A stretch of 64,000 bases of DNA from UHGV virus genome UHGV-0370399; one strand, given 5' to 3'. This stretch comes from a virus. Shown in pieces: positions 12,390 through 12,521 of the stretch. Under the pieces are notes generated by a model. The model was given only the letters and a program-made list of their open reading frames with translations. It did not search any database and was not told the DNA's origin. The translations under genes were made by a program, and so were the position numbers. Numbering within the stretch: position 1 is the stretch's first letter; every line of letters starts with the position of its first letter.

Positions 12390-12521
12390 CAGAAGACCGT
12401 TTACAGCAAAACTTAAACAATCTATTTCTCCGGTAAAGAAAAGGCGAAGGTTCGATTCCTTCACTCGGCAGATGTCGAGTTGGTGTAATGGTAGCACTTA
12501 AGATGATAAACAACGGTCTGG
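12390..12521 (+). ncRNA. Structured element A4 (closing stem AGACCGTT/AACGGTCT) enclosing a circularly permuted tRNA-like module; candidate Y-RNA-like (YrlA-like) RNA
   Basis: Inside the stem, in order: T-arm GAAGG-TTCGATT-CCTTC (12446-12462), acceptor-like hairpin ACTCGGC-AGAT-GTCGAGT (12463-12480), D-arm-like TGGTGTAATGGTAGCAC (12481-12497). Confidence 0.5.

Follow-up and report, generated by a model that had tools for sequence, protein, structure and literature searches.

The 64,000-nucleotide stretch of DNA analysed here (the window) is a Felixounavirus-type phage genome and contains, inside a bacterial-type tRNA operon, an element (A4) that is a conserved non-coding RNA of FelixO1-type phages with a rearranged tRNA shape. 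We consider A4 likely to be a functional YrlA-like Y RNA, most likely the partner of the protein encoded at positions 9999-11414, with a proposed processing and effector role. Ro60/Y RNA particles are known in animals, some bacteria and a few phages. The DUF2828/DUF7788 proteins, to which the protein encoded at 9999-11414 belongs, are common in phages and are also found in giant viruses of protists; to our knowledge they have so far been without an assigned function or a known RNA partner, and A4 and three shorter elements that precede it (A1-A3) are probably the missing Y RNA partners of this large uncharacterised viral family of Ro60-like proteins.

In the MFE fold, A4 as a whole spans positions 12387-12524 of the plus strand (on which all features lie unless stated otherwise), and its core, delimited by the fold and by a model match, comprises the 126 nt at 12395-12520. 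The outer helix is formed by TTAC (12387-12390) and GTAA (12521-12524), with C12390-G12521 as the closing pair, and is followed by an internal loop (AGA at 12391-12393 and G at 12520) and an inner stem in which A12394-G12399 is paired with C12514-U12519; directly 3' of the 5' strand of this stem lies the single-stranded motif UUUACAGCAA (12400-12409). Inside the basal stem the order in the MFE fold is V hairpin, T arm, acceptor-like hairpin (AS), U-G linker and D arm. The V hairpin (UUUCU-CCGGUAA-AGAAA, 12425-12441; MFE fold) has the place of a tRNA anticodon or variable arm and is joined by the 5-nt AAGGC to the T arm (GAAGG-UUCGAUU-CCUUC, 12446-12462; read directly and found in the MFE fold and comparatively), the loop of which is canonical (U54 U55 C56 R57 A58, closing pair G53-C61). 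The AS (ACUCGGC-AGAU-GUCGAGU, 12463-12480), identified by the fold and by covariation, is a closed hairpin of 7 bp and a tetraloop, followed by the linker U8-G9 (12481-12482, read directly) and the D arm (GUGU-AAUGGUA-GCAC, 12483-12497), in which A14, R15, G18 G19 and A21 are present. At the Levitt position, A15 (12488) would stand with C48 (12445), or with A48 in some relatives, which is non-canonical compared with G15:C48 or A15:U48.

The positions given in the earlier note for the T arm, for ACTCGGC-AGAT-GTCGAGT, for TGGTGTAATGGTAGCAC (12481-12497), and for CTTAA (12412-12416) and TTAAG (12498-12502) are all exact, and the T-arm, acceptor-like and D-arm hairpins that it had claimed are exactly recovered by the MFE fold. 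The V hairpin was missing from it, and the anticodon-stem pairing that it had suggested between CTTAA and TTAAG is found in the Felixounavirus version only, is not kept in Suspvirus or Mooglevirus and is absent from the consensus fold. The thermodynamics of A4 alone are weak (z of only -1.6 to -2.0), and comparative evidence was therefore relied on for the fold.

A4 was found at a coverage of at least 80% in 246 phage records from three genera, and it is unannotated or mis-annotated in about 250 public phage genomes. The labels carried by various GenBank records at A4 are tRNA-Thr, tRNA-Met, pseudo-tRNA and hypothetical protein. Among 11 aligned homologues, 98.3% of pairing cells were paired, a share that fell to 81% in shuffles and to about 42% when the partners were slid, and both-sided changes occurred in 11 of the 21 pairs, including five of the seven in the AS; in alignment A6 all seven AS pairs are compensatory. 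Four of the five T-arm pairs showed compensatory changes across 18 distant members, and RNAalifold recovered the terminal stem and the T, AS and D hairpins unaided from 10 Ounavirinae versions, while the V hairpin was weakly supported by the consensus fold (3 pairs); distant members have a small UCC-N7-GGA-type hairpin at its position. The linker between AS and D is U-purine in nearly every parsed member. A covariance model (R2) built only from 18 phage members outside the Ounavirinae matched A4 end to end (12395-12520; 74.7 bits, E 5.3e-13, whole window searched), and the T-AS-D insert of the A4 type occurs within the same basal module in at least 12 distant lineages. Since the AS stem takes three different yet complementary sequences within the Ounavirinae and the model of distant relatives matches A4, the fold is not due to chance; covariance modelling, named in the earlier note as a check, thus upholds it, with the T, AS and D pairs kept by compensatory changes.

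The same changes bear on two alternative explanations. One, to which we assign a negligible probability, is that the region encodes a small protein, as a minus-strand ORF of 107 aa (12295-12618) and the "hypothetical protein" label in some GenBank records might suggest. This reading was rejected on account of 1-nt and other non-triplet indels among relatives (TTTCT-CGG; AS loops of 4, 4 and 8 nt) and of stem substitutions that are pairwise compensatory and not codon-like; the annotated ORFs also vary in strand and frame between records. The other, which seems to us extremely improbable, is that A4 is a decayed, functionless remnant of two adjacent tRNA genes, the first having left its T arm and 3' acceptor strand, the second its 5' acceptor strand and D arm. 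Dimers of tRNAs from the same cluster do score weakly with the family models (15-25 bits), weak false matches of a kind against which Chen 2014 (PMC4201824) had warned, and the N-CCA that relatives encode in their AS loops is in keeping with an origin at a tRNA-tRNA junction, which is the model of Sim and Wolin as quoted in the structure paper (Wang et al. 2018). Such decay is at odds, however, with acceptor strands that stay mutually complementary through three Ounavirinae sequences and many more elsewhere, with the retention of the element in the 246 records and, inside the same basal module, in the 12 or more distant lineages, and with a score of 74.7 bits against at most 25 for true tRNA dimers. 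A dimeric-tRNA origin of A4 is plausible, but loss of function is not, and the decayed tRNA pseudogene with no conserved fold that the earlier note had considered is contradicted by the covariation.

Regarding canonical tRNAs, ARAGORN called no tRNA at A4, and the Rfam tRNA model RF00005 gave only a partial match of 22-22.5 bits, below its gathering threshold of 29, in which the V hairpin was aligned as the anticodon arm. At gathering thresholds, Rfam detected tRNAs alone in the window. A4 does not have a complete cloverleaf in the normal order, nor an anticodon stem continuous with the D arm, and the claim that it is not a canonical tRNA gene holds on both the ARAGORN result and the sub-threshold Rfam score. 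It could instead be a permuted or split tRNA gene: cleavage in the AS loop would leave a tRNA-like molecule in two pieces, and its free acceptor end would be charged or enlisted in translation or repair; the steps would be RNase P cleavage 5' of GUCGAGU, 3' trimming and CCA addition. The 7 bp of the AS are the length that makes M. smegmatis YrlA an RNase P substrate (Chen 2014, PMC4201824; Wang et al. 2018), an N-CCA follows directly on the 7-nt 5' strand of the AS in about 11 of 25 relatives (GCCA in Mooglevirus L083, L019 and L074; ACCA in L041 and L070), the V hairpin has a 5-bp stem and a 7-nt loop, and the region is labelled tRNA-Thr or tRNA-Met in some GenBank records. We nevertheless regard this as very unlikely, given that the AS in the window is closed by an AGAU tetraloop with no CCA, that the V loop CCGGUAA has C in place of U33, that the anticodon stem and the tRNA calls are lacking as described above, and that the conserved basal module and the Ro60-like neighbour would be left unexplained.

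The basal module is common to A4 and the three short members preceding it, which were identified by a structured scan, by folding and with a further model (R1). A1 (11746-11823, core of 66 nt at 11754-11819; 33.7 bits) has the outer helix TGAC/GTCA, an AGA/G internal loop, the inner stem (A)GACCA/UGGUC(U) and the motif AUUACAGCAA; A2 (11912-11977, core of 54 nt at 11920-11973; 27.2 bits) has the outer helix TTGC/GCAA and the motif UAUUCAGCAA; and A3 (12301-12379, core of 67 nt at 12309-12375), which R1 missed with default filters and scored at 20.0 bits with filters off, has the outer helix GAGC/GCTC and the motif AAUACAGCAA. In all four elements the module consists of a G-started stem, single-stranded UUACAGCAA and a 3' C-U-G, and the outer helix covaries among them. 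Covariation extends to the base that precedes G1 and the U of the CUG tail, which are paired in 69 of 71 cases across the family and still in 15 of 16 where the tail base is other than U. Motifs of the UUUACAGCAA type are common to A1-A4 (repeat family D7) and to more than 70 DUF2828-adjacent elements of other phages, and the single-stranded UUUACAGCAA is proposed as a candidate protein-recognition site. As to transcription, in the interval from the Ro60-like gene to the first tRNA, which carries the repeated 28-nt block D12, a consensus scan gave two sigma-70-like promoter matches (11433-11553, with TTGACA at 11433 and 11524); each matches 10 of 12 positions, which is not above the regional shuffle expectation, and they are likely, on this weak evidence, to mark the start of the transcript of the tRNAs and A elements.

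The gene at 9999-11414, ending 981 nt upstream of A4, encodes a 471-aa protein that was characterised with Pfam, AF2 and Foldseek. Pfam gave matches to DUF7788 (1.8e-43), DUF2828 (1e-29) and, weakly, VWA_2, and none to TROVE (PF05731) or vWA_Ro60 (PF25045); the protein falls in phrog_850, "RNA-binding protein". Searches of the PDB by sequence, with the single sequence or a profile, found no match, so that a comparison of folds was needed. The AF2 model (pLDDT 86.6, pTM 0.87) is helical to about residue 263 and continues as an alpha/beta domain, and all 11 of the best Foldseek matches in the PDB are full-length matches to Ro60 (best 2i91_A, E 6.8e-8, TMq 0.66). The protein is thus predicted to fold like Ro60, the predicted structure having the family trait of a HEAT-repeat ring with a C-terminal vWA domain and its MIDAS; the MIDAS residues D279-x-S281-x-S283, T349 and D381 are invariant in 36 homologues. 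At the sequence level the similarity to Ro60 is marginal, hhalign against the Ro60 of mycobacteriophage Bxz1 giving 62.8% (E 7e-5) around the MIDAS motif.

This protein is the presumed partner of A1-A4, and a counterpart may be seen in gp130 of the Felixounavirus Bas63, an assignment that rests on the genus, the Ro60-like fold and the position upstream of tRNA genes. Bas63 gp130 is Ro60-like, lies directly upstream of tRNA genes and counters the Ppl defence, and its authors guessed that some of the Bas63 "tRNAs" are Y RNAs; expression of gp130 by itself, whether from a plasmid or from T7, is enough to restore growth on Ppl hosts (10.1101/2024.10.10.617714), and at least the Ppl phenotype therefore does not need phage RNAs.

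The linkage of the RNA to the gene was found well beyond the Ounavirinae. RNAs of the A type, either in the short form or with the T-AS-D insert, stand next to DUF2828 genes in no fewer than 40 of the 65 loci from distantly related phages, mostly less than 600 nt away, and all 76 model matches in the 812 kb searched lie on the strand of the DUF2828 gene. In a reverse test that started from the RNA motif alone, a DUF2828 ORF was present at 31 of 63 structured matches compared with 1 of 62 unstructured ones, and all 31 were on the same strand as that ORF. About half of the structured motif matches were without a DUF2828 ORF in the DNA examined, many of them near the ends of the stretches.

An alternative that dispenses with the protein is that A4 is a structured RNA of the tRNA operon, acting either as a decoy or sponge, its targets being host enzymes or defence nucleases with specificity for the tRNA elbow or acceptor stem, or as an element for the processing or stability of the transcript. 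Its place in a tRNA cluster, where the same nucleases would release it, the 7-bp acceptor-like stem with canonical T and D loops, the ability of Bas63 gp130 to counter Ppl without phage RNAs, and those structured motif matches without a DUF2828 gene in the DNA examined are all consistent with this. It is rendered unlikely, in our view, by the presence of the RNA family beside DUF2828 genes in phages with no tRNA cluster nearby (loci L025, L027, L035, L036, L039, L043, L062 and L073), by the constant strand and the usual distance of a few hundred bases, and by DUF2828 being the sole gene common to the window and the distant loci; it also leaves the basal module common to A1-A4 unexplained.

As a Y RNA partner of the ring protein, A4 would be transcribed within the phage tRNA cluster and then excised by host tRNA-processing nucleases. 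The bulged basal helix and single-stranded UUUACAGCAA, common also to A1-A3, would form the docking site for the ring protein, while the permuted tRNA part, by analogy with Ro60/Y RNA particles, might expose a tRNA elbow for recognition by a host enzyme that binds tRNA, candidates being exoribonucleases such as PNPase and enzymes of modification or repair. A4 and the ring protein could in this way tether or gate the host enzyme during infection. The locus thus offers concrete candidate RNAs, with a testable recognition motif, for the DUF2828/DUF7788 proteins, and it does so in a group of genetically tractable E. coli phages of which one member (Bas63) has a protein that counters a bacterial defence.

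Regarding known systems, the closest comparison is with YrlA, which is defined by its domain order and its adjacency to Ro60 (Chen 2014, PMC4201824). A4 shares with it the basal stem, the optional V hairpin, the T arm, a closed acceptor-like hairpin of variable length, the U-purine linker (a conserved UA at this place in YrlA; structure paper, PDB 6CU1, Wang et al. 2018) and the D arm, together with the tRNA letters in the T and D loops. The two also have in common a same-strand gene less than 4 kb away for a ring-shaped protein with vWA/MIDAS that is of Ro60 type (by predicted fold in the present case), shorter sister RNAs without the full tRNA-like domain (YrlB there, A1-A3 here) and the existence of phage examples. 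The interpretation of A4 in the earlier note as a permuted tRNA-like module of YrlA architecture is supported, both by the V-T-AS-D order, U-purine linker, loop letters and basal stem, all kept by compensatory changes, and by the neighbouring gene with its predicted Ro60 fold; it lies 981 nt upstream in the same orientation, an arrangement that forms the genomic signature of YrlA. Binding by Ro60/Rsr in vivo and modification by TruB and DusA also belong to the criteria for YrlA. The comparison with the YrlA covariance model, which that note had also pointed to, went the other way: RF02553 (gathering threshold 69 bits) gave no match at E<=10 on 12370-12540 or 11400-14800, its positive control, the YrlA of mycobacteriophage Bxz1, scoring 32.5 bits, and the reverse model gave only 13.2 bits on true YrlA. 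Further differences are that GNCGAAN0-1G, the proposed Ro60 contact of YrlA, is not found in the 5' part of A4, which reads (A)GACCGUUUACAGCAA, A4 having instead a G-started stem followed by UUACAGCAA and, on the 3' side, C-U-G; that the neighbouring protein is DUF2828/DUF7788 and not TROVE/vWA_Ro60; that A4 sits within a tRNA gene cluster; and that its T and D stem sequences are unlike the YrlA consensus. The sole GGCGAAG of A4 (12443-12449) is at the V/T junction and not near the 5' end. Because there is no RF02553 match, no GNCGAAN0-1G near the 5' end and no TROVE protein by Pfam beside it, A4 is better called YrlA-like, an RNA of a family of its own, than a member of YrlA. The permuted-tRNA layout known from YrlA is here found again, attached to another protein-binding module, and this speaks for the tRNA elbow as the part that does the work.

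Among other systems, Ro60 of the Thermus phage phiLo has two phage Y-like RNAs and the PNPase of the host as binding partners (PMC12135203), and the phiLo Ro60-Yrl1/Yrl2 and mycobacteriophage Ro60-YrlA pairs resemble the present locus in having a phage ring protein with partner RNAs adjoining its gene; the role proposed for them is hijacking of host PNPase and escape from defence. Those proteins are, however, canonical TROVE Ro60 and their RNAs carry CGAA in a stem-bulge-stem, which sets them apart from the present locus in protein family and in RNA recognition module alike. Metazoan and Deinococcus Y RNAs (RF00019) likewise have a terminal helix formed from both ends, a bulge or loop near the protein site and a variable effector module beyond, but they have a conserved GGUCCGA and bulged C, and the metazoan ones are without a permuted tRNA domain; the Rfam Y_RNA model gave no match at E<=10 in the region of the tRNAs and A elements. 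Permuted tRNA genes (red algae, some archaea) and tmRNA share the placing of the tRNA 3' half before the 5' half and the mimicry of T arm and acceptor. Once circularised, the former become complete tRNAs that include an anticodon arm, and the latter has a chargeable acceptor end, whereas the acceptor hairpin of A4 is closed and its D arm is not continued by an anticodon stem.

The basal module, finally, resembles the Class I RNAs of Dictyostelium (Rfam RF01414; Aspegren 2004, Avesson 2011, Kjellin 2021, PMC7919456), which are eukaryotic and reported to be unique to Dictyostelia (Kjellin 2021, PMC7919456). Both have a 5' G, a terminal stem of 5-7 bp that varies in sequence and stays paired, and a 3' end C-U-G of which the C pairs with the 5' G (G12395...C12518 U12519 G12520 in A4, likewise in A1-A3). 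Directly 3' of the 5' strand both have the motif (C)CUUACAGCAA, with U3, C6, C9, A10 and A11 invariant; GUUUACAGCAA of A4 agrees with the 11-nt Class I motif CCUUACAGCAA at 9 of 11 positions, including all five invariant ones, the exact motif CCUUACAGCAA is present in phage elements of the L025/L036 type, and the variants CUGCAA, CCGCAA and CAACAA are found in both groups. Further likenesses are short forms of about 55-65 nt with a variable middle and clusters of differing gene copies, and some dictyostelid members (asu_can_20, ppa_can_99) have a hairpin resembling a T arm. A model (R3) built from 26 dictyostelid RNAs alone matched 32 phage elements on the DUF2828 strand (15.8-29.4 bits; A2 at 16.4 bits), with a single match on the other strand. 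Formal membership of Class I was ruled out by the Rfam scores: with RF01414 the phage elements reached 12.8-27.5 bits (A4 12.8; A2 24, full-length), below the gathering threshold of 41.5, and none reached it in 13 loci. Class I RNAs are 42-65 nt long, a range that includes A2 (54), is just exceeded by A1 (66) and A3 (67) and is far from A4 (126), which is twice as long owing to its tRNA-like insert. The dictyostelid genes have a DUSE promoter about 60 nt upstream, whereas A4 is in a phage and in a bacterial-type tRNA operon. The known direct binder of Class I RNAs is the RRM protein Rnp1A/CIBP, nothing connecting these RNAs to Ro60 was found in the literature, and a peptide-word search of partial Dictyostelium proteomes for a DUF2828 protein gave only one unrelated vWA protein.

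We suggest only tentatively, and with some doubt, that the basal module of A1-A4 (UUACAGCAA, G-started stem, C-U-G) represents one RNA class across phages and dictyostelids, in which case the Class I RNAs would be relatives that likewise serve as partners of a Ro60-like protein of DUF2828 type. As DUF2828 occurs in giant viruses of protists, Class I RNAs might have been acquired horizontally, and under the one-class reading the uncharacterised pull-down protein DDB_G0281243 would be a candidate Ro60-like partner of Class I RNAs. In these terms, A4 would represent a Class I-type RNA in its "YrlA form". We know of no function assigned since 2004 to the abundant Class I RNAs of Dictyostelium, and if the link is true, this long-standing question would become directly testable.

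The minimum-energy fold of positions 12382-12530 is a closing stem around four plus-strand hairpins, namely a small V hairpin (12425-12441), which was absent from the earlier note, a T arm (12446-12462), a 7-bp acceptor-like hairpin, AS, with an AGAU loop (12463-12480) and a D arm (12483-12497). That note had read the A4 element (core 12395-12520, plus strand) as a circularly permuted tRNA-like fold of the YrlA type; its coordinates for the arms are all exact and the observation is confirmed. Direct reading gives the elbow letters as a T loop UUCGAUU closed by a G-C pair, a D loop AAUGGUA and a U-G linker, and such T-loop, D-loop and linker letters define tRNA elbows. 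The folding-energy z-score of A4 is modest (-1.6 to -2.0), so that the case for this element rests on comparison with other sequences.

In Felixounavirus, Suspvirus and Mooglevirus, 246 phage records contain A4 at a coverage of at least 80%. Across 12 distinct versions the T arm and D arm are invariant and three acceptor-like stems occur, each complementary (ACTCGGC/GTCGAGT, ACACGT/GCGTGT and ACCCTTC/GAAGGGT). In an 11-sequence alignment 98.3% of cells pair, compared to 81% in shuffles and about 42% with slid partners, and 11 of 21 pairs changed on both sides. RNAalifold independently recovers the terminal stem and the T, AS and D hairpins, with the V hairpin weak; the CTTAA/TTAAG helix that had been proposed for the anticodon-stem position falls outside its prediction and is confined to the Felixounavirus version. 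A4 is therefore a conserved, covarying RNA fold, and very probably a functional RNA whose structure includes a permuted tRNA-like domain.

A protein-coding reading of A4 is excluded by non-triplet indels and paired substitutions. Annotation of the region in public genomes is inconsistent, mostly lacking and otherwise given as tRNA-Thr, tRNA-Met, tRNA-OTHER/pseudo-tRNA or hypothetical protein (e.g., GenBank records of REP5, REP8, warpig, VSe102, Si3 and SUT_S720). In the Felixounavirus contig L010 the match to A4 (7448-7527) covers no more than its first 81 nt, which may reflect natural truncation or rearrangement, and a pattern scan of this contig found no complete A4.

Regarding genome setting, the window derives from the genome of an enterobacterial phage of the FelixO1 type (Ounavirinae), and 331 phage records match the 3.2 kb around A4, with Escherichia phage ECML-1 the top match (96.9%). 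A4 lies within a plus-strand tRNA gene cluster (11580-14631; 15 tRNAs by ARAGORN, 13 by Rfam), which in related phages varies by insertion of HNH homing endonuclease genes and here includes a 150-aa HNH endonuclease ORF (13855-14307, plus strand). A weak tRNA-like match at 13402-13476 (plus strand; tRNA-Sec model, 21 bits; not called by ARAGORN) is a partial repeat of tRNA-Arg 13180-13256 (71% identity, repeat D10) and probably a decayed tRNA copy. Parts of the tRNA cluster are bordered by paired plus-strand hairpins at 12243-12300, immediately preceding A3, and 13751-13840, which have the block UUUUKAGAGGGCU (repeat D14, inverted repeat I1) in common and may be terminators or processing sites. 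Directly 3' of A4 is an element of about 145 nt (12523-12666, plus strand; MFE -48.3 kcal/mol, z -6.3), which is closed by a 22-bp stem. It is kept in Ounavirinae, its stem showing compensatory changes, and matched zero Rfam families; one of its inner hairpins, CAGACC-UUAAGCAA-GUCUGG (CAAACC-CUUUAGCAAG-GUUUG in relatives), looks like a miniature A-element motif.

The ends of A4 are common to three shorter sister elements, A1 (core 11754-11819), A2 (11920-11973) and A3 (12309-12375). All four have a 4-bp outer helix covarying among the copies (TGAC/GTCA, TTGC/GCAA, GAGC/GCTC and TTAC/GTAA), inside it an AGA/G internal loop, an inner stem (A)GACCR/YGGUC(U) and the single-stranded motif (U)UACAGCAA.

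The gene at 9999-11414 (plus strand, 471 aa) ends 981 nt upstream of the A4 core, and two promoter-like sites lie between it and the first tRNA. Its product has matches to DUF7788 and DUF2828 in Pfam and to PHROG 850 'RNA-binding protein', while the Pfam search gave no TROVE match and a sequence search of the PDB gave zero matches. AlphaFold2, given 36 homologues, yields a confident model (pLDDT 86.6, pTM 0.87), whose best 11 PDB matches by Foldseek are without exception full-length Ro60 proteins (Xenopus, Deinococcus, Thermus phage phiLo; top match E 6.8e-8, TM 0.66), with isolated vWA domains ranking after them. Compared with a viral structure library, the model comes closest to DUF2828/DUF7788 proteins from phages and from giant viruses (Pithovirus, CroV, Marseillevirus, Mimiviridae), and Ro-like/TROVE phage proteins rank next. 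The MIDAS motif is invariant among homologues, and profile comparison with the Ro60 of mycobacteriophage Bxz1, a canonical one (TROVE and vWA_Ro60), gave a colinear match around this motif (62.8%, E 7e-5).

Eighty viral loci encoding relatives of this protein were fetched, 65 of them from unrelated phages at 39-47% identity, and searched for sister elements by a structured pattern scan and then the family covariance model R1. R1 gave 76 matches at E<=1 in 812 kb, every one of them on the strand of the DUF2828 gene; one or more elements occur at 40 of the 65 distant loci, usually no more than a few hundred bases up- or downstream of the gene. In consensus the elements read 5' G-R-N-N-N and N-N-U-N-C-A-G-C-A-A, then a variable segment, the complementary strand and U-G, with stem sequences varying between lineages. 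In 69 of 71 elements the first tail base is paired with the base preceding G1 (15 of 16 where the tail base is not U), a pair for which no search selected. In the reverse direction, IMG/VR was scanned with the RNA motif alone and the examined DNA checked for a DUF2828 ORF, which was present at 31 of 63 stem-bearing matches, all on the same strand, compared to 1 of 62 without the stem. The basal module is family-wide, and its linkage to the predicted Ro60-fold protein is tight and strand-specific. Among the window genes only DUF2828 is common to these loci, several of which have no tRNA genes; elsewhere the gene and small RNAs lie near tmRNA genes (one permuted) or tRNA clusters (L045 2000-2281; L069 8710-9201; L076 7760-8252; L048 6936-9976). 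The association with translation-related RNA genes is recurrent, not obligatory.

The order T arm, AS hairpin, U-purine, D arm recurs inside the basal module in at least 12 independent lineages, many long members having a canonical D arm UAGCUCAGUGGUAGAGC. For 18 long members from outside Ounavirinae, pairing holds in 97.8% of cells and compensatory changes occur at 16 of 21 pairs, in an alignment that was fitted to the model; R2, built from those 18 alone, recovers A4 of the window end to end (74.7 bits, E 5.3e-13), and true tRNA dimers in the cluster reach at most 25 bits. About 11 of 25 tRNA-like members have N-CCA immediately after a 7-nt AS strand, so that the loop encodes a tRNA 3' end (L083 3001-3117; L019 4379-4509; L041 7155-7289; L070 6706-6837; L074 4120-4240; L063 7440-7532; L080 2652-2782). 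This suggests origin from a tRNA-tRNA junction, possibly with cleavage there by RNase P, and cleavage at such a site has been described for YrlA of M. smegmatis (PMC4201824; YrlA structure paper). A4 of the window has a closed tetraloop without CCA. Two family members (L058 7193-7315; L063 7330-7428) carry a normal-order tRNA-like insert (D, anticodon, T arm) in the G-stem/CAGCAA/CUG module, which can therefore host either orientation.

The sole non-tRNA Rfam match to the A elements was the Dictyostelium Class I RNA (RF01414), full length and below threshold (A2 24 bits, A4 12.8 bits, a distant phage element 27.5 bits with E 0.0011). The short phage elements fit the published definition of this class, with a 5' G, a variable-sequence 6-bp stem, CCUUACAGCAA after the 5' strand, 3' CUG(U), a length of about 60 nt and clustered genes (PMC7919456), and motif variants are identical in published dictyostelid sequences and phage elements. 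When R3, a model from 26 dictyostelid RNAs only, was run on 802 kb of phage DNA, it gave 33 matches at E<=1, of which 32 fall at element sites on the DUF2828 strand and one lies on the opposite strand. Some Class I RNAs (asu_can_20, ppa_can_99 and asu_can_59; Kjellin 2021 supplement) have T-arm-like hairpins (CCUAGGUUCGAUCCCUAGC; UUGGUUCGAAUCCGAU), followed in asu_can_20 by a second hairpin, which parallel the tRNA-like inserts seen in phage members. A published account describes Class I RNAs as unique to Dictyostelia (PMC7919456), and among their pull-down partners is the uncharacterised protein DDB_G0281243. As a hypothesis, a link between phage elements and Class I RNAs is proposed, by which A4 offers a credible, testable connection to an unsolved eukaryotic RNA class.

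A4 is probably a functional YrlA-like partner RNA of the Ro60-like protein. This protein would bind the bulged stem and UUACAGCAA motif, and the tRNA-like elbow could recruit a host tRNA-binding enzyme; A1-A3 might serve as alternative or gating partners, and the particle may remodel RNA decay or repair in infection.

By comparison with YrlA as described by Chen 2014 (PMC4201824) and the YrlA structure paper, A4 has the same domain order, elbow letters, U-purine linker and variable AS length, shorter sister RNAs (A1-A3 relate to A4 as YrlB to YrlA) and an adjoining same-strand Ro60-type gene; domain order, elbow letters and this neighbour uphold the YrlA-type interpretation. In contrast, A4 lacks the motif GNCGAAN0-1G, and its neighbouring protein is not TROVE. 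A4 did not match Rfam RF02553 (YrlA) at E<=10, compared to 32.5 bits for YrlA of Bxz1, and the best R1 match in the Bxz1 Ro locus is the exact YrlA site at only 13.2 bits, with the motif columns deleted. A4 would therefore function like YrlA, yet it is part of a separate family that has a putative protein-binding module of its own. Phage Ro60 proteins with Y-like RNAs are known from mycobacteriophages, CcrColossus, phage G and Thermus phage phiLo (PMC4201824, PMC12135203), the phiLo particle additionally binding host PNPase (PMC12135203); the locus described here would be a further Y RNA/Ro60 system, one whose recognition module differs and whose protein belongs to a divergent clade.
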